From assembly GCA_963813065.1 (NCBI GenBank), contig CAWEXP010000010.1, positions 96,250 through 160,249 on the forward strand: a DNA stretch of 64,000 nucleotides, read 5' to 3'. A program made the translations under genes and the position numbers. The notes beneath the pieces were generated by a model. It did no database searches and was not told where the DNA came from. It saw only the letters and a list, made by a program, of their open reading frames with translations. This document shows positions 6,378-59,342 of this stretch, piece after piece. Positions within the stretch are counted from its first letter, which is position 1. Each line of letters begins with the position of its first letter. This DNA comes from Candidatus Kaiserbacteria bacterium (GTDB lineage: Bacteria > Patescibacteriota > Minisyncoccia > Phycocordibacterales > Phycocordibacteraceae).

Positions 6378-6416
6378 GGATTTCAGTCTACTATAAAAAG
6401 ACGGTATACTCGCGGC

Positions 6417-11006: not shown

Positions 11007-11021
11007 GTTATAGTGCACACC

Positions 11022-13604
11022 ATGTTCAACCCGCTGTCCCGCTTCTTCTCTAAGAACCAATCCGCGGCCTTTCTGAAGGCTGCGGCCTCGGTCGTTTCTG
11101 CCGCAGGAGCACTCGAAGCCGAGCTGGAGAAGCTCTCGCAGGAAGACCTGCGGGCGAAGGTTGCCGAGCTGAAGGCGCGCGCAGGAAACGGCGTTCCCGA
11201 AGCCGATATTCCGCTTGTGTTTGCGCTCGTGCGTGAGGCGGCGCGCCGCACCCTCGCCCAGCGCCCTTTCGATGTTCAGCTCATCGGCGGTCTCGCGCTC
11301 GCGCGGGGCAAGATTGCCGAGATGCGTACGGGCGAGGGCAAAACCTTGGTTGCAACTCTGCCTGTCACCCTCGCTGCGCTTGCGGGGAAGGGGGTGCACA
11401 TCGTGACGGTGAATGATTATCTTGCGCGTCGTGACTCCGCATGGATGGGGCAGATCTATGACTATCTCGGGCTCTCGGTCGGCGTGATTACCTCGAGTGG
11501 TGCATATCGCTACGATGCCTCGCATGTCGAGAAGAAAGAAGATGCCGAGCGCGACGCCGCCGGGTCGTTCAAAGTTTTTTATGATTTTTTGCGTCCTTGC
11601 ACCAAGCGCGAAGCGTATGCGGCAGACCTCACCTACGCGACCAACAACGAGCTCGGGTTCGATTATCTGCGCGACAACACTGCCTACACCGCCGAACAGA
11701 TTTCTCAGCGTGGCCACGCCTATGCCATCGTCGACGAGATTGACTCAATCTTGATTGACGAAGCGCGCACCCCGCTCATCATCAGCGGACCGGCCGGCGA
11801 CTGGGGAATCTCTATCAGCAATTTGCGCAGATCGTACATGGTTTTAGTAAGGATGAGGATTATACGGTCGACGAGAAGCAAAAAGCCATCCAGATAACCG
11901 AAGCGGGGATGAAGAAAGCCGAACAGGCCCTCGGGATGGAAAATCTCTACACCGAAGGCGGTATCAAATATGCGCATCACCTCGAGACCGCGGTGCGCGC
12001 CGCGGCACTCTTCCACAAGGATAAAGAGTACGTCGTGAAGGATGGTGAGATTATGATTGTTGACGAATTCACGGGCCGTATGCAGCCCGGTCGCCGTTGG
12101 AGCGAAGGTTTGCACCAGGCGATTGAAGCAAAAGAAGGCGTATTGGTAAAAGAAGAGACACGCACCTATGCCTCGGTCACGTTCCAAAATTATTTCCGCA
12201 TGTACGAGAAGGTCGCGGGCATGACCGGTACCGCGCTCTCGAGCGAGGAAGAATTTTTCACCGTCTATGGGCTCGATGTGGTCGTCGTCCCGACGCACCG
12301 GCCCTCGGCGAGAAAAGACTTTGATGATCTCATCTTCCAGACTGCGGCCGGGAAGTATCGCGCAGTGGCCAAGCGGGTCAAACAATTCCACGAGAAGGGC
12401 CAGCCAGTGCTCATCGGCACGGTCTCGATCGAGGACAACGAGCTCGTGAGCCACTATCTCGATTCTGCGGGCGTCCCGCACGAGGTGTTGAACGCCAAGA
12501 ATCATGAACGCGAAGGCGAAATCATCGCCGAGGCAGGTGCGCCCGGGCCGCGTGACGGTCGCGACCAACCTCGCGGGCCGCGGTGTGGACATCAAGCTTG
12601 GTGGCGCTCTGGCAACTGTAGAGTCTCGCGCGCTCGTGGTGGAGAAAGGCGGCTTGGCGGTCATCGGCACCGAGCGGCACGACGCGCGCCGCATCGACAA
12701 CCAGCTCCGCGGACGTTCCGGCCGCCAGGGCGACCCGGGCGAGACGCGGTTCTTCGTCTCGCTCGAGGACAAACTCATGCGCGTCTTCGCGAGCGAGACG
12801 CTGAAGCGCGTGATGGGCGGCTTCGGCCTCCCCGAGGACGAGCCGATTGAGAGTGGGATGATTACTAAGTCGCTTGAGAGCGCGCAGGAGCGTATCGAGG
12901 GATTCAACTTCGATTCGCGCAAGCAGGTGCTCGCCTACGACGACGTGATGAACACCCAGCGTCTCTCCATCTACGCGCGCCGTCGCCGCGCCCTGCTCGG
13001 CACAAACGAGGAGGTTGTCGAGGAGGCGCGCACACTGCTTCGTGGCGAAAATACGGAAGTCAGACTTCCGTACCAGGTAGGGAAGTCTGACTTCCGTACT
13101 ATACTGGAGGCCAAGCAGGCAGAACTCGGCGAGCAGTTCATACCGTTGCTGCGCCGCCTCATCTTGCAGGTCATAGACACCTTCTGGCTTGAGCATCTCG
13201 ACACGATGGAGTACTTGCGCCGCTCCGTGTCGCTGCGCGCCTACGGCCAGCGCGATCCGCTTATCGAGTATCGCCGCGAGGGCTTGCAGCGCTTCCGCGC
13301 GATGGAGGAGGGCATCGCGCGCATGTTTGGCGAGACACTCCCCAATCTCACCCTCGCGCAGGACGCGGCCATCAAGCAGGAGGAGGCGCGGCTACGCGCG
13401 CAGCTCGAGAAGGCGGGCAGCGCATCGTTGTCCCCGGCGGGGGGCAAGGAGAGTGCCGTTGGCGCTGCGCATGCGCCCATCGTCAACGCGACCGGCCACG
13501 GCAGGAACGATGTGGTCACGGTCAAGAAGGGCACCGAGACGCAAACTATTAAATATAAAAAGGCCGAGGCCCTCCTCGCCGAGGGCTGGGAATTGATGCC
13601 ATAA
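11022..13604 (+). CDS. secA: Preprotein translocase ATPase SecA, interrupted by two single-base frame shifts (near 11797 and near 12545). The middle 0.75 kb is in another frame and the two shifts compensate.
   Basis: The three listed ORFs (11013-11897, 11909-12850, 12504-13604) together carry contiguous SecA motifs: [39 protein letters not shown] | LGNLYQQ...[44 protein letters not shown] | [45 protein letters not shown]. Both junctions sit in G/C homopolymer-like runs. Confidence 0.85.
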
Positions 13605-15600: not shown

Positions 15601-16326
15601 AAACTAGGACACGGCGTGTCCTAAATTTAGAGTTCGATGCTTTTGCTCTCGCTGGCGATAATTGGATCCGAAATAATGGAGCGTATTTCTTTCTGTTGTT
15701 CTTGGGTCGTGCCAAGAACTGGGCGTAATTCACTCATCTGCAAAATGGAGGGAAAATTCTTAGACTCATTGTAGTCGAGATAACTACTCCAGCGATAGGC
15801 ATGCAATTCGTCGAGTGCATCTTTTGCATGGCGAACACCTCCCTGTCGCCATTCAGGATGGCTCAAATCAAGGGGATTAAGATGAATATAGTAAGGAACA
15901 TACATAAAATGTGCATCACGAGTGACGAGAACCTTTCTGAAAGTTCCTTGCCAGAGAACGCCAGAGCGTTGATATTTTTCATTTACATATTTCGCGTAGC
16001 CCATATTCAGTTTCCGCATGAATAAAGAGAGCGAGCCTTCTTTTGTGGGGGAGACGAGCAAGTGGTAGTGGTTTGGCATGAGTGCGTACGCATGAATGTG
16101 CACAAGGAGATCCCGTTTATGCGGTGCCTCACGTGCTTTCAGTATATAGTTTGGCGCCGAGCAAGTATCATTGAATATGTACATATCATGGATAAAACGA
16201 AGATAGTCTCCGTCTTCCATAAAGACTTTTCGTTTATCGACACCCCGATTTACCAAGTGATAAAACTCCATCGAATGTCATATTAGCAAGCCGTTTCAAA
16301 CTAGGACACGGCGTGTCCTAAATAAG
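15601..16326 (-). mobile_element. REPtron 1: RayT/IS200-type Y1 transposase gene flanked by identical about 27-bp direct copies of palindrome REP1 (TAGGACACGGCGTGTCCTA)
   Basis: REP1 lies at 15605-15623 (immediately 3' of the stop) and at 16302-16320 (5' of the start). The extended identical flanks are AAACTAGGACACGGCGTGTCCTAAAT. Confidence 0.65.
15627..16271 (-). CDS. REP-associated tyrosine transposase (RayT/IS200-like, Y1 HUH) copy 1
   Basis: HUH motif NHYHLLV, and Y-motif HAYRWSSY. N-terminus MEFYHLVNRGVDKR is typical of Y1_Tnp. Confidence 0.75.
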   Translation of the reverse strand: MEFYHLVNRGVDKRKVFMEDGDYLRFIHDMYIFNDTCSAPNYILKAREAPHKRDLLVHIHAYALMPNHYHLLVSPTKEGSLSLFMRKLNMGYAKYVNEKYQRSGVLWQGTFRKVLVTRDAHFMYVPYYIHLNPLDLSHPEWRQGGVRHAKDALDELHAYRWSSYLDYNESKNFPSILQMSELRPVLGTTQEQQKEIRSIISDPIIASESKSIEL

Positions 16327-26200: not shown

Positions 26201-29200
26201 AACAACTACTTCGCGGGCAACCTTGGTGTCGGCGTCACTTCGCCCAGCTACAAGCTCGACGTCGCGGGATTCATCAACACCGACCAGTACAGCGGCTACA
26301 AGCAGGCGGGAAATACGGTCTTGTATGCGAGCACGACGAACGCGAGTCTTGCGGTGGGTGCATCGAGCGCAGCTGCATGGATGGCGGCGAGCTCCACACT
26401 TCTTTACAATATCGCTATCGGCAGTGGCGCACTCAACACAGCTCCCACTTCTGCCGGTACGGCACAGTTCAACACTGCCATTGGTGCCAACTCGCTGTTG
26501 AGGCAACACCACGGGAAATAGAAACTTCGGGTTGGGGTTCAGTGCGCTCAACCTCAACACGAGTGGTTCCTACGACACAGGGATTGGTTACCTCGCCCTT
26601 AGCACCAACATTGCTGGTTCGAACAGCATCGGTATCGGCGGCAATGCTCTTCGTTTCAACACTGCCACAAATAATATTGTTGCTATAGGTCATGATGCGG
26701 CGTGGGGCAACACTGTCAGTTACTCAAACCAAGGCGGTACCTATATTGGTTATCAGTCTGGAGCTAATGCTTCTACCAACTCCGACTACAACACATTCTT
26801 GGGCTACCAGTCCGGTTTTGGAGTGACAACAGGTAATGACAATATTATCCTCGGCGTGAACCCTAATACGGGAGGTGGCAATAATCTCACCACTGGCGCC
26901 AATAACATCTTGATTGGCTACAACGCCATTGCGCCCTCGGGAGCCGCCGCCAACAACCAGCTCAACATCGGCAACTTCCTCTTCGGCACGGGGCTCACGG
27001 CAACTTCGTCTTCGACTTCGCTGCCCACGGCGCTCACCGGCAACTTGGGCCTCGGCACCTCCACTCCCTCTTCGACTCTCTTCGTGCAGAACAATTACGG
27101 TGCCGGCCCCGCCTTCACCATCGCCTCCTCCACCAACTCCTCGGGCACCACTGCCAACACCCTCCTTACTGTCTTGAATAATGGCAACGTCGGCATCGGG
27201 ACGACCTCGCCGCTCACCTCGCTCGATGTCGGCGGCCAGGTCACCTACGTCGGCCCATTCTCCGCCTCCAACATCCCGGTCGCTTCGTTCTCTGCGAACT
27301 CCAATGCGGTATCAGGGGTCCAGTTTACCAACGTCAACACCGGCACTGTTGCAGACTTCCGCTTCGCGATTGCCGACCAGACCGGCAACTACACTGCGCT
27401 CACGATGCCTTCCACCGGCAACGCCGCTGCTACCGTCTTTGGCCTCGCGCGAAGCACGGCGACGTTCCTCTTCAATAACGGCGGCACTACGCGCGCCTTC
27501 GGCATCGGGACGCTCGGTGCAAACGATCTCGTGCTCGGCACCAACGGCACTGATCGCCTCCACATCACCTCCGCCGGCAACGTCGGCATCGGCACCACCT
27601 CACCCTACGCCAATCTATCGGTGATGGCAGGGGGGAATTATGCGAGCCTCGCGCCAAGCACGGTCTTCGCGATTGGTTCGAGCACGGCGGGCACAGCGAC
27701 GTCGACACTATTCAGTATCAATAGCTCTGGTCTAGTGACAAATAATGGGAGCGAGACTATCGCGGGTAAACTTGGGATAAACAACACCAACCCGCAATAC
27801 ACTCTCGACGTCGCGGGCTTCATCAACACCGACCAGTACAGCGGCTACAAGCAGGCGGGGAACACCATTCTCTATGCGAGCACGACCAACAGCACGCTCG
27901 CCGTTGGTGCCTCAAGTGCGGCGGTATGGATGGCAGCCTCCTCGACGCAGTGGTATGACACAGCGGTCGGGTATGGCGCACTTGCTACGACACCCACCAC
28001 GGGCACAGCACAATATAACTTCGCGATCGGTTACCAAACCCTCAATTCCAACACTGCTGGACTCGGCAATACGGCGATTGGAATGCAATCCTTGCTAAAC
28101 AACAGCACTGGTTCCAATAATATTGCCATGGGTGGTGCTACTCTTGGTCAGAATACTACTGGCAGCAACAATACAGCTGTCGGTGTGAGTGTACTTCGTT
28201 ACAACACGCTCGCAGCAAACTCGACTGGTTTCGGTGCATACGCCGGATACGGTAACGCGCTCTCATACTCAAACACCGGCGGCACCTACATCGGCTTTAG
28301 AACAGGGTATTTTGCCTCCACCAACTCCGACTACAACACCTTCCTCGGATACCAGGCGGGGTATGACGTTACGACTGGCAATGACAACATAATCATAGGT
28401 GCGAACCCGAACACGAGTGGCTCCCACCTCACCACGGGGATGAACAACATCCTCATCGGGTACAACGCCATCGCGCCCGAGGGAGCGGCCGCGAATAACG
28501 ACCTCAACATCGGCAACATCATCTTCGGCACCGGGCTCACCGCGACGAGCTCGGCGACCACGGTGCCGACCGCGCTCTCGGGGCTCATCGGTATCGGGCA
28601 CGAGCACGCCGTGGGCGAATCTCTCAGTACAGAGCAATTACGGTAGCAGTGGGGTCGGCGCGACGACGACTCTCTTCGCCATCTCCTCATCCACCAATGC
28701 GAGCGGGAGCACGAGCAACGGCCTCTTCATCGTGCAAAACACACCCTATACCAATTCCAACGTGCGTGTGCTTGTCAACGAGAACCAACTACTAAACGTC
28801 AATGACACGATGGAGGTTAACGGCACGCTGAACGTCAATGCGCTCACTATCAACCAGGCGAGTCTCATCGGCAACACCAATGGCTACAGCTGGGTACGCG
28901 GCGCGGCCGCGCAGGGGATTGCTTTCCTCGTGAACGGCACGACTGGTGCCACAGCACCTACTGGCGCCGCAGCAGTCATCACTTCGGGAGGGAACGTCGG
29001 CATCGGGACGACGACTCCCGCATATCCTCTGGATGTAGTGGGAAGCGGCGAGCAGTTCGAGAACACATACCTTTCGTTGAATCCGTATGCGAGCACCAAC
29101 GCACAGATCTCAGTGAGCGGCGGCAGGGCTTACTTCGGCTATGACAGTTCGAACGGGAATGCGGTCGTACAGGGAGCTGGCGGCAAGGGAATCGAGTTTA

Positions 29201-32200
29201 ACGTCAGTAACTCCACTTTCGCCTCCGGCACTGCGGCAGTCCTCAGCTCAGCCGGTAACCTCGGCATCGGGACGACATCGCCTTACGCCAATCTCGCCAT
29301 ACAGAATAATTACGGCTCCAACAACACGACGCTCTTCTCGATTGGCTCCTCGACCGCGAGGAACGGGAGCACGGCGAGTACGCTACTCAAGGTGAGCAAC
29401 ACCGGCGCACTCACCCTCGCCAACTTGGCAGGGAATGCGAACGGGGTGGTCTATCCAGACGCCAACGGCACCCTCAACGTCACCGCCGCAGGCGGTGCAG
29501 GCACGCTCTGCCTCATCGCGACCAACGGCGGCGTGCCCACCTGGGGCTCCTGCGCAGGCTCGGCCTCCACGGTCTGGAGCCAGCTCTCCAACCCCACCGG
29601 CAATCTCGCGCTCTCGATGGGCGCCAACACTACCACCTTCACGGCCCAGAACACGGGCAGCAATAACCCCTTCACCTTCGCCGACAACACCAGCAACGCT
29701 GGCACGGGCATCCTAGTCAATATCGCGAGTGCGGCCTCCTCGGCCATCACGCCCTTCCAGGTCTCGGCGGTAGGGAATCCGGCGTTGACGGTCGCCGCCT
29801 CCGGCAACGTGGGCATCGGGACCACCTCTCCCTATGCCAATCTCTCGGTGATGGCGGGCGGTAATTATGCGAGCCAGGCGGCGAGTACGGTGTTTGCGAT
29901 TGGTTCCTCCACCGCGGGCACGGCGACGAGTACGTTGTTTAGTGTTAACAGCGCGGGGAATACGAACATTGCAGGGTCGCTGACAGTCGCGGGCAATCTT
30001 GTCTCGGTGCTCAATCAGACTGGCACTGGTAATGTGGTGTACTCGGCAAGCCCGAGCCTTACAGGAGGTCTATTCATTACGCCCGGTCCCCTTACGATGG
30101 GCACTTCAGGTCAACGAGGTGTTATTTCAGTACCACTTGCTAACCAAATACAGATAGGTCCGGCCGATGTTGATACGACTGCCGCTATGGGCGCCCAAAT
30201 CCTTCGTTCCCAAGGCGCGCTCGCAGGCGGCACGGCAGATCAGGCGGGCGTGAACTGGACATTCATCGCTTCGCCCGGCAAAGGTCTAGGTGCGGGCGGT
30301 TCCTTCGTCTTCCAGACGGTGCCCGCTGGTTTGGTGAGTAATACAGTCGTCAACGCGCCGGTTACAGCATTGGTTATTAATTCAGCGGGCCTCGTCGGCA
30401 TCGGGACTACATCCCCTTATGCGAAGCTCTCGGTGATGGTGGGAGGGAACTATGCGAGCCAGGCGGCGAGTACGGTGTTTGCGATTGGTTCCAGCACGGC
30501 GGGCACAGCGACGTCGACACTATTCAGTATCAATAGCTCTGGTCTAGTGACAAATAATGGGAGCGAGACTATCGCGGGTAAACTTGGGATAAACAACACC
30601 AACCCGCAATACACTCTCGACGTCGCGGGATTCATCAACACCGACCAGTACAGCGGCTACAAGCAGGCGGGGAATACGGTCTTGTATGCGAGTACGACGA
30701 ACGCGAGTCTTGCGGTGGGTGCATCGAGCGCAGCTGCATGGATGGCGGCGAGCCCGACCCTTTTACAGAATGTTGCCATTGGAGTCGGAGCTCTTGCGGC
30801 AACTCCGGCTGTGGGCTCACCTGGCGACCAGTACAACACGGCAATTGGCTATAACGCGCTCAATGCAAATACCACCGGCTCGTACAACTTCGCTCTCGGG
30901 TCTTGGGCGCTCCTCAACAATACAAGCGGTGTACGCAATACCGCTCTCGGTACGAGTGCTCTCTACACAAACAACGGTTCATACAATTCCGCATTTGGCA
31001 TGAATGCTCTTTATTCCAATACCACTGGCTCCAACAACACAGTTTTCGGTTATTCGGCAATTCGTTATGCATCCGCGGTAAACAACGTTACTGCAATCGG
31101 TTATCAAGCTGTAAGTGGGGGTACCACCTTCTCCAATCAAGGCGGCACCTACGTCGGTTATGGTTCAGGCTATTCGGCGGGCACCAACTCCGACTACAAC
31201 ACCTTCCTCGGGTACCAGGCGGGGTACCCCAACACCACAGGATTCGACAACATCCTGATAGGGGCGCAGAAGAACACCATCGGGGCAGGGTACCTCTCCA
31301 CCGGCGGGGACAACATCGGCATCGGTTTTAACACTCTCTTCCCGAGCGCGACCGCCAACAACCAGCTCAACATCGGCAACTTCCTCTATGGCACGCTCCC
31401 TGCCACTACCACCGCCTCCACCTTCGGCCTGCCGACCACCGGCAACTTCGGTATTGCCACCACCACCTCCGCACTCTTCGGCATCCACGCCAACAACGGC
31501 GCGAGCTACTCCTCGCTCTTCATGATTGGTTCTTCTACCGCGAGTGCGACTACCACGCTCTTCACGGTCTTGAACACGGGCAGCGTCGGCATCGGCACCA
31601 CCAGCCCGCAGTGGCTGCTCTCGCTCTCCGGCGGTGGGCAGAGGATTAAGGAGACGAGCGACATCCTGAACGCGTTCTCGATAGAGAACTCGGTCGGCTC
31701 TACGACCGTCGCCGCCGATACGATCGACACGAGCGGCAACATCTTCTCGGTCGCGACCAGCTCCGGCACCGATTACTTCGACGTCGCGGCGAACGGTAAC
31801 ATCGCGCTCTCGACGAGCGTGTACTCGACCTGTAGCAGTCTCTCCACCAGCGGTGGCGTCATCCAGTGCTCGGTCTCTGATCAGCGATTGAAGCAGAACA
31901 TCACCACGCTCGCGCCAGCGACTGGCCTCGCCGCCATCGACGCATTGAATCCGGTTTCCTACACCTTCATCGACCCGACGCGTCCGCAGGGCACGCAGTA
32001 CGGATTGATTGCGCAACAGGTACAACAAGTGCTCCCGGCGCTCGTCGCCACTTCCTCGCCGACGGCGCTCACGCCCGACGGTACGCTGACCGTGAACTAT
32101 GACGGCCTCATCGCGCCGCTTATCGAGGCAGTCCAACAGCTCGACGCGCGGACGAAGGGGATTTCGAATTCGGCTTCAAGCACCGTGATGACCTTCGACA

Positions 32201-33600
32201 TCTCGGGCAACGTCGGGCTCGGCGTCGCACCGAGTGCCGCAGATAAATTGACCGTCGGCGGCAACATTTTCGCGCAGGCATACGAGGTGCCAGCCGGCAC
32301 GGTGACGGCGTATACGTTTGGCGCGGCAAGTGGAAGTCAGACTTCCAGTTCCGACGGAGGAAGTCAGACTTCCTTTGCCGCGCCGATACCGAGTGTGGTG
32401 CTTACGGCAGGTGGACGGGTCGACCTCTACAAGCTCGCAACCTACAATCTCTCGGGTATCTCCGCGCTTGCGGTGCGCCTCCAGACCGACGAGATGCGCC
32501 TGACCTCGCTCGAGGCACGCGTCGCAGAGCTCGAGAATGGTTCCATCGCCGTCTCGACCTCGACGCCGTTCTCCACCTCGACCCTCGCCTCCGCCTTCTC
32601 CGGCCTCGGCGCATACATCCAGCAGGGCATCGCGCAATTTGGCATCCTCGTCGCCGACCAGTTCGTCGCCGCGACCAACTCGGCGGGTACGAGCTCCGCG
32701 GGCACCGTGACGATTCCGGCCGGCAACACGGTCGCGGTGGTGACGAACGCGTACGTCAATCCGGCGTCCAAGATTTTCGTCACCTTCACTGCCTCGACCA
32801 CCGCCTCTTGGTACATCAGCGACAAGCAGAACGGCTCCTTCAAACTCATCCTCTCTGCGGCGCCGACGAGCGATATCTCCTTCGACTACTTCATCGTCCA
32901 GACGCAGGGCCAGATCGCGACCAGCACGCCCGTTTCTGAAGGAGGTCAGACCTTCACAAATCCTCAAGGTCTGACCTCCCAGCCCGTGATTACTCTGCTC
33001 GGCGACAATCCGCTCCATCTCTCGGTCGGTGGTACCTTCGTCGAGCCGGGCGTGAGCGTGCATGACTCTGATGGCACCAATGCGTACGTCACCTTCGTCA
33101 ATGGTGTGCAAGAAACCATTTCCTCGACGACGCTCGACACGTCGAGCCCGACCACTTATATCATCACGTACAGCGCGACCGACAGCTCGGGCAACACTGC
33201 GACCGCGCGCCGCTCGGTGATCATCGGCAATCCAGACGGAACCGTTTCTTCCGGCGCCGGTGGAGGTCAGACCTTAAATCCGAATCCTCAAGGTCTGACC
33301 TCCTCGGCACCGGCTGATACCACGCCACCCGTTGTCACTCTCAATGGTTCGGCGGCACTCACCACCTCGCAAGGCACGACCTTCACTGATCCAGGCGCAA
33401 CGGCAACCGATGATACCGATGGTGACCTGACCAGCAAGATTAAAGAAACGGGTACCGTCGACACGACAACCCTCGGCCTCTACACGCTGACCTACTCGGC
33501 CACCGACTCAGCAGGGAACACCGGTACCGCCTCGCGCGTGGTCTCGGTTGTCGCGGCTCCGAGTGCGCCAAGCGACGCTTCCACAACGCCCGCGGGTTAA
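20213..33600 (+). CDS. Giant (about 4,460 aa) HTH-TM-anchored, Gly/Thr/Ser/Ala/Asn-rich repetitive surface protein. It has tail-fibre-like repeats, an S74-type intramolecular-chaperone motif and two DUF5011 Ig-like domains. One gene, split by two frameshifts near 26500 and near 28600.
   Basis: ORFs 20213-26521, 26532-28646 and 28732-33600 carry the same repeat unit (GNVGIGTTSPYANLSVMAGGNYA...AGFINTDQYSGYKQAGNT(V/I)LYASTTN...) straight across both junctions; the reading frame just slips at GC runs. Other domains: HTH_17-like N-terminus plus TM (VFAVVAAFLVVGSGAFIAHAG); SDQRLKQNITTLAPATGLAAIDALNPVSYTFIDP...YGLIAQQVQQVLPALV near 31870; C-terminal DUF5011-like segments (PVITLLGDNPLHLSVGGTF...; PPVVTLNGSAALTTSQGTTF...TYSATDSAGNTGTASRVV). 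Confidence 0.7.
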
Positions 33601-36161: not shown

Positions 36162-36900
36162 CTCCCATGTAGGGTTTCGTAAATCCTACATTCCGTCATT
36201 CAAGCCTGAATCCAGGTTCTAGGTCGCCCTGAGCATCCTTCAGATACTCGGCAAGCGCGCGAGGGTAATTCCCGAGCGCGTTCTTAAAAAGGGAAGTGGT
36301 AAGGACGGAAGGAAAATTTTTCTTGCCGGTGTAATCGAGATAACTGCTCCAGCGATAGGTGTCGAGATATTCCAAAGCTTTCTTTGCACTCTTGATGCCG
36401 TTCTTACTGCGCACGCGCCACTCCTCGGCGCCTTCGAGGTAGTCGAGCGGGTTAAGGTGGATATAGTGCAGGATGTAGTTGAACTGCGCGTCGCGCTCAA
36501 TCAATATTTTCTTCGTCCGCCCTTGGAAAAGAGTGCCCTTGCGCTCGTACCGTTCATTAAAGTAATTCGCATACCCGACATTGAGCTTGCGCAAGAATAA
36601 ACTCACTCCGCCTTCGATTTTTTCTGACAACAGCAGGTGATAGTGGTTCTTCATCAGGCACCACCCATGTATCTCCACAATCCGCTCTCGCTCAATGTAG
36701 GGTTTCGTAAATCCTACATCTGGCGCACAGCGACGCTCAGAGGCCGCAGCAGGTGAGCGGTCGTTGAATTGGTATAAGTTATGGATAAAACGAACGTAGT
36801 CGGAAGAATCAGAAAATAAGTGTCGCCCGTCAACTCCCCGATTGAGTGCATGATATAGCTCGGCCATATAGATGTAGGGTTTCGTAAATCCTACATTCAA
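36162..36900 (-). mobile_element. REPtron 2: RayT-type transposase with palindrome REP2 (TGTAGGGTTTCGTAAATCCTACA) at its 3' flank, 5' flank and inserted in-frame inside the gene
   Basis: REP2 copies at 36168-36190, 36696-36718 (internal; encodes APDVGFTKPYI, absent from copy 1) and 36873-36895. Confidence 0.65.
36196..36867 (-). CDS. REP-associated tyrosine transposase (RayT/IS200-like) copy 2. The likely start is MAELYHALNRGVDGR at 36867; the listed ORF starts at a TTG inside the upstream REP.
   Basis: HUH motif NHYHLLL and Y-motif DTYRWSSY; 55-60 percent identical to copy 1 outside the REP insertion. Confidence 0.75.
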   Translation of the reverse strand: MAELYHALNRGVDGRHLFSDSSDYVRFIHNLYQFNDRSPAAASERRCAPDVGFTKPYIERERIVEIHGWCLMKNHYHLLLSEKIEGGVSLFLRKLNVGYANYFNERYERKGTLFQGRTKKILIERDAQFNYILHYIHLNPLDYLEGAEEWRVRSKNGIKSAKKALEYLDTYRWSSYLDYTGKKNFPSVLTTSLFKNALGNYPRALAEYLKDAQGDLEPGFRLE

Positions 36901-39270: not shown

Positions 39271-40278
39271 ATGAAACCAATTCGAGTTGCGATAAATGGA
39301 TTTGGGCGGATCGGGCGAGCCTTCGTGCGGAGGAGCCAGGGGAGGAATATTGAGATTGTTGCGGTCAACGATCTCGGCTCGCTCGAGAATCTCGCGTATC
39401 TTTTGAAATACGACACGGTCTACAAACGCGCGGCATTTCCCGTTGAAGCAAAAGACGGTGCTTTGTGGATTGATGGGAAGGCCGTGAAGTTTTTGCAAGA
39501 AAAAGATCCCGCGCACTTGCCGTGGAAGGATCTCGACGTTGATGTCATCGTCGAGTCGACCGGATTTTTTACTGACTATGAGAAGGCGAAGGCGCACCTC
39601 GATGCGGGTGCGAAACATGTGGTGATTACCGCACCAGTGAAGGGAGAGTCGGAACTCGGCGCGACGGTGTTGATGGGGCTGAACGAAGAAAAAATAAAAT
39701 CCTGCCCGATCACGAGCAACGCCTCTTGCACCACCAACTCCGCGAGTCCGCTCATCGCGATTCTCGACGAGGCGATTGGTATCGAGAAGGCAATTCTCTC
39801 CACCACGCATGCCTACACTGCGTCGCAGGCGATTGTCGACGGTCCGAGCAAGAAGGACATGAAGGAAGGCAGAGCCGCGGCGCAAAATATCGTCCCGACC
39901 TCGACCGGTGCGGCCGTCGCGGTGACGCAGGCGTACCCCGCGCTCGTGGGGAAGTTTGACGGCATCTCGCTCCGCGTGCCGGTGCCTGCGGGCTCGATTG
40001 CGGACATCACTTTCATTGCGAAGCGGTCAACGAGCAAAGAAGAAGTAAATGAGATATTGCGCGCCGCCGCAACGGCGGCGCGCTGGGCTGGCATTTTCTC
40101 GGTTACCGAGGATGAGCTGGTTAGCAGTGACATCATCGGCGAGCCCTACGCCTCGATTGCCGACCTCGGGATGACGCGCGTGGTCGATGGCAATCTAGTG
40201 AAGGTGCTCGCCTGGTACGACAACGAAATGGGGTACACCGAAAGCCTCGTCCGGCACGTGCTCGCCACGGCGCAATGA
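39271..40278 (+). CDS. gap: Glyceraldehyde-3-phosphate dehydrogenase, type I
   Basis: INGFGRIGR NAD-binding motif, the catalytic Cys motif SNASCTTN, and WYDNEMGY. Confidence 0.9.
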   Translation: MKPIRVAINGFGRIGRAFVRRSQGRNIEIVAVNDLGSLENLAYLLKYDTVYKRAAFPVEAKDGALWIDGKAVKFLQEKDPAHLPWKDLDVDVIVESTGFFTDYEKAKAHLDAGAKHVVITAPVKGESELGATVLMGLNEEKIKSCPITSNASCTTNSASPLIAILDEAIGIEKAILSTTHAYTASQAIVDGPSKKDMKEGRAAAQNIVPTSTGAAVAVTQAYPALVGKFDGISLRVPVPAGSIADITFIAKRSTSKEEVNEILRAAATAARWAGIFSVTEDELVSSDIIGEPYASIADLGMTRVVDGNLVKVLAWYDNEMGYTESLVRHVLATAQ

Positions 40279-40727
40279 ACAAAATCTATTTTGCGAGTGA
40301 TCACGCCGGTTTCAAGTTGAAAGCAGTGTTGGTCCCGTATACGCAGAGCCTCGGCTATGAGGTCGAGGATGTCGGGCCATATGAAATTGTCGCCACCGAC
40401 GATTATCCGGAATATATTACGCCACTCGCGCGCGCGGTGGCAGGAGACGCCACCGCGCGCGGCGTCATCATCGGCAAGAGTGGCCAAGGCTGAGGCGATG
40501 TGTGCCAATCGCATCAAAGGTGCTCGTGCTACGGTCTTCTACGGTGGTTCGCTCGAGATCGTCACGCTTGCGCGCGAACACAACGATGCAAATATTCTCG
40601 CTCGGCGCGCGGGTTCGTGAACGACGACGAGGCGAAATCGGCGTCAAACTTCTTCTCGATACGGCCTTCAGTGGCGAAGAGCGACATGTTCGCCGCTCGC
40701 AAAGTTTTAATCATGATGACATCGTAA
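40275..40727 (+). pseudogene. rpiB: Ribose-5-phosphate isomerase B, disrupted by about three frameshifts
   Basis: MNKIYFASDHAGFKLK... (frame 0), then ...AEAMCANRIKGARATVFYGGSLEIVTLAREHNDANILA (frame 1), then GFVNDDEAKSA (frame 0), then KLLLDTAFSGEERHVRR (frame 2): RpiB motifs in order but in three frames. Confidence 0.6.
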
Positions 40728-41424
40728 CGCCAGCGATACTCGCGACTTCTGCCGAAGAGTTCGAGGCGAAGCTCGCGCGCTTCACGTTGATTCCCGCCGT
40801 TCGACGTATCCAGATTGATGTCGTTGACGGTCGCTCGCGAAGCCCGCGTGCTGGCCCTTTCACAGAAAGGGCAGTTCGAGAATTGCTCGCGCGGCAGTCG
40901 CTCCGCACATCGGACGATTCGAATTCGAGATCGATCTTATGGCGCTCGAGCCAGAGACCATTGCGCTCGCGTTTCTTGAGCTGGGCGCCTCACGCTTCGT
41001 CTTCCATGCCGAGAGCGCGACCTCGCTCGGCCGCCTGCTCGCACTCTTCCGTCGCCTTGCGGGGCACGAAAAAGGATTCACCAATCTTATTTCTATCGGC
41101 CTCTCACTCGGGAACGCGAGCGACCTCTCGCTGATCGAGCCGTATCTCGACCAGGTCGATTTCGTACAATTCATGGGCATCGCGAAGATCGGTTCTCAGG
41201 GCCAACCCTTCGATCGCCGCGTCGTCGAGCGAATACGTGCGTTCCGTCTCCGCCATCCAGAAATTCCCATCCAAGTGGACGGTGGTGTCACGCTCGAGAC
41301 CGGACGCGCACTCCTCATGCAGGGCGTCGAGACATTGGTGGTCGGGCACGACCTGCTCGAAGCGAAAGACATTCGCACCGAGCTCGCGCGATTCGAGGAT
41401 TTGCAGAATCCGTATAGCATCTAG
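40712..41424 (+). pseudogene. rpe: Ribulose-phosphate 3-epimerase-like gene, frameshifted. Its N-terminus is in-frame continuous with the rpiB C-terminus (possible rpiB-rpe fusion).
   Basis: IVTPAILATSAEEF...IQIDVVDG (frame 2) matches the Rpe N-terminus (IAPSILSADF...IHxDVMDG). ...FEFEIDLMALEPE...FVQFMGIAKIGSQGQPFD...IQVDGGVTLETG...LVVGHDLL (frame 1) matches the Rpe C-terminus. Confidence 0.5.
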
Positions 41425-41441
41425 CGTGGTATCGTTCTCCT

Positions 41442-42315
41442 ATGGCACTCCTCGACACTGACATCCAAGCGCTCGAACAGAAGGCGGTCGAGATTCGTAC
41501 GACCGTCATCGAGATGCTCGTGTCTGCAGGGAGCGGACACACCGCAGGGCCACTCGATATGGCGGACATTTTCACTGCCTTTTATTTTCATATTCTCAAG
41601 CATGATCCGAAGAATCCGGCGTGGGAAGAACGTGATCGGCTGATTCTCTCAAATGGCCACATTGTCCCGGTGCGCTACGCGGCGATGGCGCACGCGGGCT
41701 ATTTCCCGGTCGAGGAGTGTTTGACTCTGCGGAAGTTCGGCTCGCGTCTCCAGGGTCACCCCGAGCGATTGCGTTTGCCTGGTCTCGAGACGACCTCGGG
41801 CCCACTCGGCGAGTGGCCTCTCGCAGGCCGCGGGCATCGCGTATGCGCTCCGCATGCAGGACACGGCGTATCAATTCAGAAGTTGGACACGCCGTGTCCA
41901 ACTTGGGAAACCGCGGTGTATTGCCTCACGAGCGACGGCGAGCACGATGCGGGCAACACGTGGGAGGCGGCGCTTTGGGCGGGGAAAAATAAATTATCGA
42001 ATCTCACCGCGCGTGGTCGATCGCAACAATATCCAGATTGACGGTATGACCGAGGACGTCATGCCGCTCGAACCTTTTGCCGATAAATATCGCGCATTCA
42101 ACTGGCACGTCATCGAGGTCGACGGTCACAACATCCGCGCATTCATTGAGGCCGTTGAAGAAGCGAAGGCGATCGAAGAGAAACCGACAATGATTATCGC
42201 GCACACCATCGCGGGCAAAGGCGTGAGAGAGATTGAAGGCGACTATCACTGGCACGGCAAACCGCCCACCGCTGAAGAAGCGAAACGATTCCTCGCTGAA
42301 ATTCACCATGCATAA
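41442..42315 (+). pseudogene. tkt: Transketolase N-terminal subunit (split TK), disrupted by three frameshifts and carrying a 25-bp REP1-like hairpin inside the coding sequence
   Basis: SGHTAGPLDMADIFTAFYF..., GHPE...PGLETTSGPLGE | GLSQAAGIAYALRMQD | AVYCLTSDGEHDAGNTWEAALWAGKNKLSNLTA | VDRNNIQIDGMTEDVM...FNWHVIEVDGHN alternate between two frames. Confidence 0.65.
41880..41904. repeat. REP1-related perfect palindrome AAGTTGGACACG-C-CGTGTCCAACTT inside tkt coding sequence
   Basis: 12-bp arms. Its core GGACACG.CGTGTCC is shared with REP1 of REPtron 1. It lies exactly where the tkt frame switches. Confidence 0.6.
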
Positions 42316-43317
42316 TCCTTCTGCAAAATTAGTCGAGAATCTGTTTGACGCGAAGATTGCGCAGGCGCCGACGCGCGACGGATTCGGCAAGGGGACCATT
42401 GAAGCCGGGAAAAAAGACCAGCGTGTGGTGGTGCTCTGCGCCGATCTCGCGGAGTCGACGCGCGCTGAATGGTTCGAAAAAGAATTTGTCGACCGATTTA
42501 TTGAAGTGGGTGTTGCCGAACAGAATCTGGCGGCGCTCGGGAGCGGTTTCGCGGCCGGCGGGAAAATCCCCTTCATCGCGAGTTATGCCGCGTTTTCGCC
42601 GGGCAGAAATTATGAGCAGATTCGTACCACCATCGCGCTCAATCAGCAGAACGTGAAGATTTGCGGCATGCACGCGGGCGTCTCGGTGGGGCCCGATGGC
42701 GCGACGCACCAGATGCTCGAGGATATCGGGCTCATGCGCATTTTGCCGCATATGATTGTGCTCAACCCGTGCGACGCCGAGGAGGCGCGGAAGTCGGTCA
42801 TCGCGGCGGCCCTGCACGACGGGCCCGTCTACATCCGCTTCGGTCGCGAGGCAGTGCCTGTGTTCACCACGAGTGAGACGCCCTTCGCCATCGGCAAAGC
42901 GCAAATTTATTATGAAAATCCGGATGAAGGTGAGTCGGGTTCCAAAGTTGCGCATACTCGCGACCGGGCCTCTGGTCTACGAGGCGCTCAAGGCCGCGGA
43001 GGCGCTCGCGAAGGAGGGCATCCGCGCAATTGTCGCGAATGTTGCCACCATCAAGCCGCTCGACGAAGACACCATCTCTCGATCGCGCGCGCGACCGGGC
43101 GCATCATCACGGTCGAAGAGCATCAGACCGCGGTGGATTCGGCAGTGCGGTCGCCGAACTGCTTGCAGAAAAATTACCGACCCGCATCGAGCGCATCGGC
43201 GTCCGCGATCAGTTCGGTCAGTCCGGCACACCCACCGAGCTCCTCAAGCACTACGGTCTCGATTCTGCGGCAATCCTAGAACGCGCTCGCGCGGTAGTCC
43301 GCGGGAGCATTTCGTAA
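42308..43317 (+). pseudogene. tkt: Transketolase C-terminal subunit (split TK), disrupted by about three frameshifts
   Basis: MHNPSAKLVE...FIEVGVAEQNLAALGSGFAAGGKIPFIASYAAFSPGR...CGMHAGVSVGPDGATHQ (frame 2), then KLRILATGPLVYEALKAAEALAKEGIRAIVANVATIKPLDEDTI (frame 0), then GRIITVEEHQTAVDSAV (frame 2), then GGFGSAVAELLAE...RIGVRDQFGQSGTPTELLKHYGLD (frame 1). Confidence 0.65.
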
Positions 43318-45308: not shown

Positions 45309-45942
45309 ATGTTTACGCTCGAAGTAACCCAGAGAAAGGCGGGTAGCCCAGGCGCGCTCCGGCGCGCCGGGTCGGTCCCTGCGGTCGTCTATGGCGCCCA
45401 CCAGGCGTCAACGCCGATTGCGGTCGATGCCCGCGCATTCGACAAGGCCTTCAAGGTCGCCGGCGAGTCGTCGGTCATTTCGCTCACCGGTCTCGGCGCG
45501 GCTATTCCCGTACTCGTCCAGGAAGTTGATCTCGACCCGCTGACCTACCTCCCGCGCCACATCGATTTCTACGCCATCACCAAGGGCGAGAAGGTCGAGG
45601 TCGCCGTGCCACTTGTCTTCGTCGGCGAGTCGGCGGCGGTCAAGGGCGGCGCCAATCTCATCAAGGTGCTCCGCGAGCTCGAGGTCAAGGCCGACCCGAT
45701 GAATCTCCCCGCCTCCTTCGAGGTTGAATCTCGCGCTCCTCGTCAACATCGACGACCAAATTCACGCCGGCGATCTCAAGCTCCCGGCGGGTGTCGAGCT
45801 CATGGTTGAGCCCGAGGAAGTCGTTGCACTCGCGCAGGAAGTGGTTGAGGAGAAGGAGGAAGTCGCACCGGCTGACCTCTCGGCTATCGAGGTGGAGAAG
45901 AAGGGCAAGGAGGAGGCTACAGAGCCCGAAGCCAAAATTTAG
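45309..45942 (+). CDS. rplY: Ribosomal protein L25/general stress protein Ctc, with one frame shift near 45729
   Basis: N-terminal L25 domain ...RRAGSVPAVVYG. The C-terminal LALLVNIDDQIHAGDLKLPAGVELMVEPEEVVA continues in the +1 frame. Confidence 0.75.
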
Positions 45943-45984
45943 GACATCCGATGTCCTAAATGCATTTGGACATCGGATGTCCTA
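45940..45984. repeat. Pair of REP1-family palindromes in opposite orientation (BIME-like doublet): TAGGACATCCGATGTCCTA and TGGACATCGGATGTCCTA
   Basis: Copies at 45940-45958 and 45967-45984, immediately after the rplY stop. The loops CCG and CGG are inverted relative to each other. Confidence 0.55.
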
Positions 45985-46008
45985 ATTCGCGTGCTAAACT
46001 AGCCGGAC

Positions 46009-47376: not shown

Positions 47377-48060
47377 TTAGTCCCTCCAAGGTTGAACCTC
47401 GGCGAAAGTACGCGCATCACTAATCAACGCGTTAATGTTCGGAATTTGCGAATGCTCGTAATAATTCCGCATATTCACCCGGTTCAGTATCGCCGCTTCT
47501 GGTCGGGTTGAGCCGAGGTAATCAGGAAGACTCGAGTAACGATATTCTGCGAGAAAAACATGCGCATCTTTCTGGTTTCGGATCAGGCCCTCTTTCCACC
47601 TCGGTTCCACTAACTCCGCTGGATTCGCATGAATGTAATTTACGAGCCGTTTAAAATAACGGTCGTCGTCAACGTGTTTTGATTTGAAGCGGCCGCCGAA
47701 GAGGGCGCCAGTTCGTTCCTCTTTCTTATTAAAATACATAGTATAGCCGGTGCCGATTTTTTGCATAAAGAGAGCGACTCCATTATTGGAGGTTTGTTGT
47801 AACAGAATGTGGAAATGGTTAGGCATAAGGCAATATGCGCCGATGGCAACCAGCGGATGTTCTCGTGGCCACTCAACAATCTCCTCCAAGGTTGAACCTC
47901 GGTGGTTATCGCCCAAGTGGACGGGTGATTCGTCATTCGCACTCACGAGCAACATGAGAAAACGTTCATAGTCTCGCTCGAAAAGAAAGACATCGCGCTT
48001 ATCGACTCCGCGATTGTAACAGTGATACCACTCGTCTGTTGCGAATGGTTCTCGATTCAT
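47377..48060 (-). CDS. REP-associated tyrosine transposase (RayT/IS200-like) copy 3. The likely start is MNREPFATDEWYHCYNRGVDKR at 48060; the longer listed ORF reads through the upstream REP.
   Basis: HUH motif NHFHILL, and Y-motif EYRYSSLPDY. Confidence 0.7.
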   Translation of the reverse strand: MNREPFATDEWYHCYNRGVDKRDVFLFERDYERFLMLLVSANDESPVHLGDNHRGSTLEEIVEWPREHPLVAIGAYCLMPNHFHILLQQTSNNGVALFMQKIGTGYTMYFNKKEERTGALFGGRFKSKHVDDDRYFKRLVNYIHANPAELVEPRWKEGLIRNQKDAHVFLAEYRYSSLPDYLGSTRPEAAILNRVNMRNYYEHSQIPNINALISDARTFAEVQPWRD

Positions 48061-48102
48061 CCAACGATTGTAGCAATCCCTCCAAGGTTGAACCTCGGTT
48101 TT
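47377..48102 (-). mobile_element. REPtron 3: RayT-type transposase with imperfect palindrome REP3 (CTCCAAGGTTGAACCTCGG) at its 3' end, inside the gene and 5' of it
   Basis: REP3 at 47384-47402 (encodes the last 7 codons, EVQPWRD), 47884-47902 (internal) and 48080-98. Confidence 0.6.
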
Positions 48103-48328
48103 TTCCAGTAGGCGATAACTTACCTCTGGTCCGAGGCCGATTGCCCAGACACCCTCCGCATGCGCAGCGGACGCCAGTATGCCTACCGCCGAAGCGGCCA
48201 ACAGGAGTGTACGCATGGTAGAACCTCGCTGATGTGAAGATCGTTTTCGGACAAATCGTCCGAGTTGGGCACGAGCCCATCCGGGGGCACCTTAGCACGA
48301 GGGTGATTTATGTCAAAAATAGAAAAAG

Positions 48329-55544: not shown

Positions 55545-56292
55545 ACTCGTGGCGGTGAAACCGCCACACCGTCAGAAAGCTCAGTGCTAAACTATTTTCG
55601 ATATGAGTACGAGGAAGACCCCATTTGCAATTGGTGAGTTCTATCACATCTTCAATCGGGGAGTCGACAAGCGAATAATTTTTACCGATACACACGACAC
55701 AGACAGATTCTTCAAAAGTTTGGTCGAATTCAACGCCACCGATCCGATAGGAAGTCTTTATGAAAACTCTCGTTACCAACGTGGCGGTGAAACCGCCACA
55801 CCGTCAGAGAAACTAGTTAACATAATTGCCTACTGTCTCAATCCGAATCACTATCATCTTATTTTGGAACAGTTAGTTGATGGCGGTATTAGTGAATTTC
55901 TGAAAAGGATTGGCGGATACACTTGGTATTTCAATAACAAATATAAAAGAAACGGCTCCCTGTTTCAGGGCGTATTTAAATCAGTCCACATAGACTCAAA
56001 TGAGTATCTGCTTCACGTCAGCGCGTACGTAAACCTGAATGGTCATGTACACAAACTTGATAGCACGAATACCCAGCTAGTTTCGAGCAGATCAAGCTGG
56101 GGAGAATATACCGAAAAAGGAGCGAGAGGAATTTGTGAAAAAGAGATTGTTCTTGGGCAATTTGGAAATAACGATGAGTACAAAGAGTTCGCGCTCTCGT
56201 CCTTGGAAGCAATCATCCAAAGAAAAGAGGAACTGAAGGATTTCGATACTTTCTTGCTCGAAGAGCCCGAATGGCGGTGAAACCGCCACGAT
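55545..56292 (+). mobile_element. REPtron 4: RayT-type transposase immediately downstream of tRNA-Thr, with perfect palindrome REP4 (GTGGCGGTGAAACCGCCAC) upstream, internal and overlapping the stop
   Basis: REP4 at 55548-55566, 55781-55799 (internal; encodes RGGETATP) and 56273-56290 (contains the TGA stop). Confidence 0.65.
55603..56280 (+). CDS. REP-associated tyrosine transposase (RayT/IS200-like) copy 4
   Basis: EFYHIFNRGVDKR, HUH motif NHYHLIL, and a Y-motif region. Confidence 0.75.
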   Translation: MSTRKTPFAIGEFYHIFNRGVDKRIIFTDTHDTDRFFKSLVEFNATDPIGSLYENSRYQRGGETATPSEKLVNIIAYCLNPNHYHLILEQLVDGGISEFLKRIGGYTWYFNNKYKRNGSLFQGVFKSVHIDSNEYLLHVSAYVNLNGHVHKLDSTNTQLVSSRSSWGEYTEKGARGICEKEIVLGQFGNNDEYKEFALSSLEAIIQRKEELKDFDTFLLEEPEWR

Positions 56293-58562: not shown

Positions 58563-59342
58563 ATGAATCCCGGCCGCCTCCACCCGATCACGATTGCTAT
58601 TCGTGATATCGCGGATATCTTCGGCCGGATGGGATTCGACATTGGGTACGGGCCGGAGCTCGAAGACGAGTTCCATAACTTCGACGGACTCCGCATGTTT
58701 CCTGATCACCCTGCGCGCGACATGCAGGACACCTTCTGGCTAAAACCCGCCCTGGGCGGGTTCGCCCGACCCGACTCGTCTGACGAGTCGGGTTTAGGGG
58801 CAAGGATACCGAGAGTGCTGCGCACGCACACGACCTCGGTCACCATTCGCGAGCTCGAGCAGATGGCGAAAGAGGGCACGATCTCAGCACGAATGATTAA
58901 TCCGGGGAAAGTGTTCCGTAACGAAGCTACGGACCAATTCCACGAAGCGCAGTTCTATCAGCTCGACGGTTTTGCGGTTGGGCCAATCGGTTCGGTTACG
59001 CTCGCTGATTTGAAGGGCACCTTCGACCGTTTCTATCGCGAATATCTCGGCCCCGAGGCGAAGGTGCGTTTCCGCCCCAGCTATTTCCCCTTCGTGGAGC
59101 CGGGCGTCGAGATCGATGTGTGGTTTGCGCCCGCGCAGAAGTGGCTCGAGATGGCGGGTGCGGGCATGCTTCATCCCGACGTGCTCCGTAACGCCGGACT
59201 CGATCCGCAAAAGGTCGCGGGCTTCGCCTTCGGCGGCGGACTTGAACGTTTGCTGATGGTGAAGTACGGCATCCCTGATGTGCGACTCTTCCACTCGGGC
59301 GACATTCGTTTCGTTTACGGTTTCCCCGAAAAGAAAATATGA
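58563..59342 (+). CDS. pheS: Phenylalanine--tRNA ligase alpha subunit (short form lacking the N-terminal about 85 aa), with a roughly 20-aa in-frame insertion encoded by nested palindromes
   Basis: HPITIAIRDIADIF..., class II motifs FRPSYFPFVEPGVEIDV and GFAFGGGLERLLM. The insertion KPALGGFARPDSSDESGLGARIP falls between DTFWL and RVLRTHTTS. Confidence 0.85.
   Translation: MNPGRLHPITIAIRDIADIFGRMGFDIGYGPELEDEFHNFDGLRMFPDHPARDMQDTFWLKPALGGFARPDSSDESGLGARIPRVLRTHTTSVTIRELEQMAKEGTISARMINPGKVFRNEATDQFHEAQFYQLDGFAVGPIGSVTLADLKGTFDRFYREYLGPEAKVRFRPSYFPFVEPGVEIDVWFAPAQKWLEMAGAGMLHPDVLRNAGLDPQKVAGFAFGGGLERLLMVKYGIPDVRLFHSGDIRFVYGFPEKKI
58743..58795. repeat. Nested palindromes inside pheS coding sequence: AACCCGCCC-t-GGGCGGGTT and CCCGACTCGTC-t-GACGAGTCGGG, enclosed by AAACCCG...CGGGTTT
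   Basis: Perfect 9-bp and 11-bp inverted repeats read directly from the sequence. Confidence 0.6.

Follow-up and report, generated by a model that had tools for sequence, protein, structure and literature searches.

A REP-family hairpin inside the transketolase N-subunit gene of a Kaiserbacteria genome, probably one unit of an in-frame REPIN doublet

The stretch of DNA analysed here, hereafter the window, comprises 64,000 nucleotides (nt) of a Candidatus Kaiserbacteria genome, a member of the candidate phyla radiation (CPR), and encodes a split transketolase whose N-subunit gene, tktN, contains a perfect hairpin of a repetitive extragenic palindromic (REP) family. The gene order gap-rpiB-rpe-tktN-tktC-pfkB(-)-fba-L25 is syntenic with a related locus (L001), and the C-subunit gene tktC (42308-43305) follows tktN. 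The features at the hairpin, in positions of the window, are as follows.

41442-42315, plus strand: tktN, transketolase N-terminal subunit, with three frame breaks and conserved blocks that alternate between two frames
41859-41873, unstranded: left REP unit, degenerate, GGACACGGCGTATCA, centred 26 nt from the centre of the right unit
41880-41904, unstranded: right REP unit, intact, a 25-nt perfect palindrome with a core identical to that of the copies flanking the transposase gene RAYT-A

The blocks MALLD...GPLGE and VYCLTSDGEHD...SNLTA of tktN lie in the frame from 41442, and the blocks GLSQAAGIAYALRMQD and VVDRNN...EIHHA in the frame from 41443. Frameshift-aware alignment with three intact orthologues places the breaks at an extra T (41814), in the hairpin region, and at an extra C (42012). 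Splicing the frames and omitting the extra hairpin segment gives a protein with 85% identity to its best homologue (P0001), which matches the solved split-chain transketolase 6YAK at 1e-76, and all close homologues come from Paceibacteria and Kaiserbacteria, both CPR lineages. The Transketolase_N domain, the GPLG and (G/S)DGE motifs and the separate C-subunit gene identify the product as the N-subunit of a split transketolase, with a frame that is discontinuous in the assembly.

The palindrome AAGTTGGACACG-C-CGTGTCCAACTT at 41880-41904 has 12-bp arms around a 1-nt centre; with two mismatches allowed, the arms reach 17 nt at 88% complementarity, and the 25-nt palindrome had no matches in shuffled sequence. 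The first-pass annotation of this DNA had described the hairpin as a REP-family member within the transketolase N-subunit gene, between RMQD and VYCL. Its coordinates and arms were found again exactly, the location is evident in three-frame translation, and the GGACACG-N-CGTGTCC core is identical to that of the copies around RAYT-A. The annotation was right about the perfect palindrome and incomplete in treating it as a single unit, given that a degenerate second copy is located 26 nt upstream; nor did it note the other two tktN frame breaks, near 41814 and 42012. The exact core occurs three times in the window (at 15607, 16304 and 41885), and allowing two mismatches adds the fourth copy, at 41859; these four compare with a chance expectation of 0.34, and 100 shuffles never gave as many. 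The looser pattern GGACA-N5-TGTCC has five exact matches, the three core copies and two more at 45942 and 45968. Altogether, the window contains 16 perfect palindromes with arms of at least 9 nt, compared with 0-2 in shuffled sequence, and the related cores GGACATC and GGAAGTC account for six exact copies in the 64 kb besides the three of GGACACG.

The family extends well beyond this genome. The relative NCBJ01 carries at least 10 exact core copies over three contigs, and a scan of a species-representative genome collection with the 19-mer T[AT]GGACACG[GC]CGTGTCC[AT]A returned 62 stretches, about 44 of them labelled as CPR lineages (Parcubacteria, Kaiser-, Saccharibacteria, Zambryski-, Niyogi-, Moran- and Berkelbacteria), against a chance expectation of about 17 by uniform-composition arithmetic. 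The matches in Holophagaceae/Acidobacteria represent one conserved coding sequence and look coincidental. The tetranucleotide at the foot of the hairpin is GTTG in the tktN copy and CTAG or TTAG in the copies flanking RAYT-A; GTAG is found at this position in three related loci (L003, L013 and L025) and in the second unit of a doublet in secA described below. The tktN copy is a short hairpin-capable palindrome within the size range of REPs (about 20-40 nt), with multiple dispersed copies both in the window and in NCBJ01.

What defines a REP system is a REP-associated tyrosine transposase (RAYT) gene with its own palindromes on either side, and the window contains such a gene.

15627-16271, minus strand: RAYT-A, REP-associated tyrosine transposase of 214 aa, with the HUH motif NHYHLL and the Tyr motif YYIHLNP
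15605-15623, unstranded: REP copy TAGGACACGGCGTGTCCTA, exact core, at the 3' flank of RAYT-A
16302-16320, unstranded: REP copy TAGGACACGGCGTGTCCTA, exact core, at the 5' flank of RAYT-A

With TAGGACACGGCGTGTCCTA at both ends, this is the configuration known as a REPtron. The protein scores 35.6 bits against the Pfam Y1_Tnp model (cut-off 23) and has both catalytic motifs, as expected of a Y1 HUH transposase of the RAYT type; a comparison with solved structures returned nothing useful (best E 0.78-0.98). The same arrangement is present in relatives: at seven loci (L004, L008, L013, L016, L031, L034 and L060), core pairs about 685-770 nt apart bracket RAYT-A orthologues, which, in these seven CPR genomes, are 48-70% identical to RAYT-A. 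No locus with the 697-nt REP pair of the window was found in the scan of the species-representative genome collection.

Three more RAYT paralogues are encoded in the window (36196-36900, minus strand; 47377-48216, minus strand; 55603-56280, plus strand), all above the Pfam cut-off; the one at 47377-48216 is 37% identical to RAYT-A, the sole pair compared directly. Two of the three are flanked by different palindromes: RAYT-D by GTGGCGGTGAAACCGCCAC at 55549-67 and again at about 56275-90, and RAYT-B by ATGTAGGGTTTCGTAAATCCTACAT at 36167-91. The related locus L070 encodes two RAYT-like genes, each with its own flanking palindrome family (TGTCGAACAC... and ATGAAAGACCTC...).

The two units in tktN are arranged as a REPIN, that is, two inverted REP units with a short spacer, an architecture known from Pseudomonas and enterobacteria (PMC3116915, PMC3337134). 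The first 11 nt of the left unit equal the complement-strand core and pair with 41889-41899 in the predicted fold of the single-stranded DNA, and the centre bases are inverted, G in the left unit and C in the right one. Three further doublets are present in the window.

45937-45987, unstranded: intergenic REPIN, GGACATC-C-GATGTCC + GGACATC-G-GATGTCC, inverted units at 45942 and 45968, centres 26 nt apart
13052-13099, plus strand: REP doublet with the GGAAGTC core, in frame in secA, units at 13055 and 13081, centres 26 nt apart and inverted
32332-32373, plus strand: GGAAGTC doublet, in frame in an open reading frame (ORF) of 1622 aa (28732-33600), units at 32332 and 32359

The secA units are TACGGAAGTC-A-GACTTCCGTA and GTAGGGAAGTC-T-GACTTCCGTAC. 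The doublet in the 1622-aa ORF, with a 27-nt spacing and the same centre base in both units, fits this geometry less exactly. The tktN, intergenic and secA doublets are each predicted to fold, as single strands, into one long hairpin, at -15.4 (z -3.2), -21.3 (z -8.6) and -22.7 kcal/mol (z -9.3), respectively. The doublet of the 1622-aa ORF, which encodes an intact surface protein, is nested in a larger near-palindrome (32322-32384; GGCGCGGCAAG...CTTTGCCGCGCC).

Comparison with intact split transketolases, the check proposed by the first-pass annotation, confirms that tktN contains additional sequence. In 111 of the 120 closest homologues, GPLG is separated from DGE by 26 residues and the loop has the consensus RM-DGKKNR-VYC; in these 111, 18 nt (six residues) separate the codons that correspond to ATG (41854-6) and GTG (41916-8), compared with 59 nt in the window, an excess of 41 nt. 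The boundaries that best reconcile this excess with the conserved loop are the following.

41863-41904, plus strand: putative 14-codon in-frame insert (42 nt) encoding TAYQFRSWTRRVQL, in the native loop RMQD^GKPR-VYCL
41914-41916, plus strand: putative loss of one base, CGG GTG -> CGGTG, which moves translation from the 41443 frame to the 41442 frame

Removal of 41863-41904 together with restoration of one G in CCG CG(G) GTG yields RM-QDGKPR-VYCL, with the loop length of the 111 homologues. As judged from the alignment, this partition is fairly likely to be correct, for four reasons: it gives a loop of consensus length in which D, G and K are kept, along with the R/H that almost always precedes VYC; it has the hairpin read as WTRRVQ, the commonest frame of the in-frame copies in relatives; tktC, at a site without a hairpin (43127-35), is broken by the same GGG->GG contraction within ACCGCGG(G)TG; and, unlike a single 41-nt insert at 41859-41899 in the native loop RM-QTWETA-VYC, it does not make the AACTT arm extension native, which would require a chance complement of 5 nt (AAGTT/AACTT). 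The 41-nt insert is the less likely boundary, as is a 46-nt element plus one extra base in the native loop RM-QGNR-VYC. The first-pass annotation had put the hairpin exactly at the frame switch and had offered two alternatives, a non-3n insertion that disrupted tkt and a frame-preserving insertion corrupted by a neighbouring indel. The hairpin does lie where the frame changes, although the break itself is about 10 nt downstream; the second alternative is the one favoured here, and the first, which corresponds to the readings of 41 or 46-47 nt, appears less likely.

The insert is flanked by ATGCAGGAC on the left and GGGAAACCG on the right, and no direct repeat brackets it, so that the terminal inverted repeats plus target-site duplication that characterize a miniature inverted-repeat transposable element (MITE) are not seen at tktN. 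Searches for the same locus in other data were negative: an exact-protein lookup of the window GAPDH, aimed at an independent assembly of the same species, found nothing, the exact 25-mer had no matches in the metagenome collection, and a locus search with pfkB reached at most 67% identity.

The loop that holds the insert joins the GLSQAAGxAYAxRM helix to the VYCxxSDGE strand and is short and variable in length. Different perfect palindromes occupy this position in intact homologues, namely, 53 nt with 25-bp arms in L065 (protein P0033), 31 nt in L067 (P0015) and 27 nt in L070 (P0104), and further length variants of the loop occur in more distant loci. P0003 and P0033, which are 96% identical, form an empty/filled pair: compared with the empty locus L152, the filled allele of L065 has 63 nt in place of 12 native nt (GKKN), with no target duplication. 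An AlphaFold model of P0033, of only moderate quality (mean predicted local distance difference test score, pLDDT, of 69), shows the insert as a coil of low confidence that links the helix 123-144 to the strand 161-166. In full-length transketolases, of which E. coli TktA is an example, the corresponding segment is far longer, in keeping with a tolerant loop. Going by the sequences of these homologues, the transketolase loop is a recurrent landing site for palindromes, and the enzyme would be expected to tolerate such inserts.

In contrast to the mostly extragenic location of REPs, several copies of this family are translated. In addition to those in tktN, secA and the 1622-aa ORF, GGACACG copies in relatives are spanned by full-length, single, above-cut-off equivalog matches to MnmA (L009), GuaA (L017), UvrB (L030) and TsaD (L025). 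Intragenic copies were judged by such full-length family-model matches in place of the longest spanning ORF, a criterion that produced antisense artefacts in GC-rich loci (a 901-aa ORF in L060 is the antisense of secA). PheT, ValS, MiaA, PyrD, TatD, a helicase and glycosyltransferases appear to be further in-frame hosts. REP-encoded peptides include WTRRVQ, RTRRVL and GHGVS. The secA doublet adds about 12 residues relative to the SecA of L050.

Several other palindromes lie within genes of these loci. The window PheS gene (58563-59342) contains two adjacent perfect palindromes in frame, AACCCGCCC-T-GGGCGGGTT and ACCCGACTCGTC-T-GACGAGTCGGGT (58744-58762 and 58769-58793), within a single domain match to the class-II core of the Phe-tRNA synthetase alpha subunit; this is probably another translated palindromic insert. 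In GuaA, the GGACACG REP (peptide GPFRTRRVLNGP) occupies one position shared by L017 (about 2027) and L036 (about 1810), owing either to inheritance of a single insertion or to another hot spot. L070 has perfect palindromes inside gap, rpiB and rpe (6121-6982, 7193-7219 and 7703-7731), and its gap product is 369 aa long, compared with the usual length of about 335. GC-rich palindromes in gap, rpiB and fba of the window (40059, 40429 and 45123) were considered as insertions and rejected, being runs of Ala/Arg codons at conserved residues. In the C-terminal part of gap, such palindromes, of different sequences, occur in three genomes (window 40059-40083, encoding the Ala/Arg-rich RAAATAARW; L001 4568-4590; L070 6759-6783), and these may be artefacts of codon composition.

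The hairpin-region break is not isolated. Frameshift-aware alignments detect at least 13 single-base breaks in the window: three in rpiB, one in rpe, three in tktN, three in tktC, two in secA and one in L25. Those in rpiB, rpe and tktC are at about 40491, 40600, 40641, 40835, 42935, 43075 and 43130. The breaks in secA (11013-13604) are at about 11802 (-1) and about 12539 (+1), and L25/Ctc (45309-45930) is split by a one-base insertion at about 45729, the repaired gene ending just before the REPIN at 45937-45987. Because this tktN break falls about 10 nt 3' of the hairpin and the window has at least 12 others, the hairpin is not its cause. The breaks themselves are probably technical errors of assembly or base calling, a view that leaves their clustering unexplained. 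In its favour are the presence of breaks in the essential secA, the lack of stop codons in the repaired frames of the pentose-phosphate proteins, the contraction of runs at several breaks (e.g. GGG to GG and TT to T), and a three-taxon branch test that revealed no acceleration, with a window fraction of 0.19-0.32 for the pentose-phosphate genes compared with 0.12-0.32 for a flanking set made up of the unbroken gap and pfkB and the broken L25.

Two breaks have a longer context, ACCGCGG(G)TG, in common. An identical 9-nt context, ACCGCGGTG, is found at 41910-41918 and 43127-43135, both of which look like GGG->GG contractions, and a third break, at 42008-42016, has the same context if one C is removed; this motif occurs four times in the window. 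Methylation-related error at CCGCGG was considered and rejected, given that the window contains 33 such sites compared with 32.7 expected, most of them in intact ORFs, with no general association with breaks.

We conclude, with a probability of roughly 0.6, that the tktN hairpin is the intact right unit of a RAYT-family REPIN doublet that sits in frame in a tolerant surface loop and that a separate one-base loss accounts for the frame change. By analogy with IS200/IS605 elements and REP-RAYT systems, a RAYT would recognise the REP hairpin in single-stranded DNA, cut the hairpin DNA and re-join it at a new site without target duplication, mobilising the doublet in trans. In CPR genomes, which are small and densely packed with genes, a copy would persist within a gene only if it kept the frame and fell in a tolerant loop. 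The discontinuity of tktN would then result from the loss of one G downstream of the hairpin, not from the element.

Several observations weigh against this conclusion. Transposition by RAYT-A is assigned by analogy, and the 45.9 bits that the protein scores against the NCBIfam REP_Tyr_transpos equivalog fall short of that model's threshold of 80. Degeneracy of the left unit makes the left boundary of the insert ambiguous, so that GGAC at 41859-62 could be either native or part of the element. A lone insert of 41 nt (41859-41899, 15+11+15 nt) restores the frame at the consensus loop length with no second event, the weakness of this partition being the atypical loop QTWETA and the native status that it assigns to the AACTT arm extension. 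Two window ORFs of 6.3 kb and 4.9 kb are unbroken. The breaks are clustered: 10 of the 13 fall within rpiB, rpe, tktN and tktC (40275-43305), the non-oxidative pentose-phosphate module, spanning 40491-43130, and the flanking gap, pfkB and fba are intact. Under uniform sequencing error, such clustering has P < 1e-7 by binomial arithmetic, which still holds when only the roughly 35 kb with homologue coverage are counted, whereas real decay of the module predicts it.

The clustering and the 41-nt partition support the best surviving alternative, namely, that a non-3n doublet insertion (41 or 46-47 nt) truly inactivated tktN, that rpiB, rpe, tktN and tktC, of no use once transketolase was lost, are now decaying, and that the other frameshifts there are genuine. 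The clustering coincides exactly with the four pentose-phosphate genes, and removal of 41859-41899, a complete 15+11+15 doublet, repairs the frame in one step. We nevertheless consider this scenario unlikely: the two breaks in secA indicate that some of the breaks are probably technical, the repaired pentose-phosphate frames show neither stops nor an elevated branch fraction, the QTWETA loop lacks the conserved R/H before VYC and entails the 5-nt chance complement, and the tktC lesion of the same kind arose with no hairpin nearby. A broader and still more doubtful version holds that the REPIN-RAYT system of CPR bacteria has shifted its main habitat from intergenic DNA to coding loops, with preferred sites, as the at least three unrelated palindromes in the transketolase loop might indicate, and that here it broke tktN and started the loss of the pentose-phosphate module. 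If so, the window would have caught a mobile element in the act of remodelling core metabolism in a minimal genome.

Formation of the palindrome in place, by template switching or inverted duplication of the native loop, is improbable. It draws on the 11-mer GGACACGGCGT, which starts in possibly native codons (CAG GAC), on the L067 palindrome, which extends into the conserved GTG T of Val-Tyr, and on the filled site of L065, where the native nucleotides were replaced, so that this is not a clean insertion. Against it, the 15-nt core is identical to the flanks of RAYT-A 26 kb away and to dozens of CPR copies, and independent doublets share the 26-nt geometry; a local process would not reproduce a family-conserved sequence. 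The notion that the palindrome is an operator, a terminator or a frameshift stimulator, with tktN expressed despite the frame change, is very hard to sustain: symmetric palindromes can be operators, the RAYT-flanking copy at 15605-23 is followed by a T-run on the minus strand, and the hairpin is followed, at 41905-11, by the classic slippery heptamer GGGAAAC, but the copies are scattered in unrelated coding loops, not promoters, the tktN copy is followed by GGGAAACC with no T-run (GGGAAACCGCGG on the plus strand and CTGAATTGATACG on the minus strand, in place of the GC-rich hairpin plus T-run of an intrinsic terminator), the heptamer is out of phase with the 41443 frame for the 41443->41442 shift, with the hairpin upstream of it and not 5-9 nt downstream as at a programmed -1 site, and the other two tktN breaks need opposite (+1-type) corrections without comparable signals.

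REP/REPIN-RAYT systems were reportedly described by Nunvar 2010 and by Bertels & Rainey 2011, and the RPE-1 family of Rickettsia palindromic elements (RPE) reportedly by Ogata et al. 2000. The elements of the window resemble the systems of E. coli and Pseudomonas (PMC3116915, PMC3337134) in their short palindromes, in the inverted doublets that fold into one hairpin, in the copies that flank an HUH/Tyr transposase, and in the conservation of the core with the RAYT across related genomes. They differ from classical, mostly extragenic REPs in that three of the five REP loci of the window are intragenic and translated, in the presence of four RAYT paralogues in 64 kb compared with the usual single copy, in the CPR/Patescibacteria host, and in a 5' tag of GTTG, CTAG or TTAG that is not the strict GTAG. 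Within the literature library searched, nothing relevant was found on REP-RAYT systems in Patescibacteria.

Intragenic REPs have precedents. Di Nocera et al. 2013 (PMC3733652) described GTAG/CGTC REPs inside genes of Opitutus terrae, Thauera and Rickettsia conorii (RPE-4/RPE-6), with monomers and dimers in frame in housekeeping and DNA-repair genes (uvrA, uvrB, tRNA synthetases) that add about 10-30 residues, are sited in loops and are presumed neutral. The tktN case differs from these REP-decorated proteins in core and phylum and adds the recurrent independent palindromes at a single loop of one enzyme as well as a RAYT with matching flanks in the window. The RPE-1 elements of Rickettsia are likewise in frame and co-translated in unrelated metabolic genes (PMC10969869); they measure about 150 bp, encode a conserved peptide of about 45-50 aa and have no known transposase, whereas the window element is 25-47 nt long and associated with RAYT. 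With the insertion sequences of the IS200/IS605 group (IS608, ISDra2), the system shares the HUH/Y1 fold family (Pfam Y1_Tnp), presumably recognition of sub-terminal hairpins in single-stranded DNA, and the lack of a target-site duplication at tktN; the tktN element differs in lacking an internal transposase gene, defined left and right ends and a recognised target tetranucleotide. The kind of element is already known; what is new is its occurrence in CPR bacteria, the large share of intragenic copies and the repeated use of one loop.

For annotation, this window calls for caution: single-base errors probably account for the seeming transketolase pseudogene. The GGACACG family is a practical marker for CPR annotation, and its insertions and hairpins can be mistaken for, or provoke, assembly errors. 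The conserved 15-nt core with a cognate RAYT is a tractable system for the study of REPIN target choice, and in-frame REPs are natural insertion-tolerance maps of conserved enzymes. REPs and REPINs are usually viewed as intergenic passengers; here, together with their own transposase, they reside inside essential genes of ultra-small CPR genomes, in transketolase, SecA and probably PheS in the window, and in MnmA, GuaA, UvrB and TsaD in its relatives.

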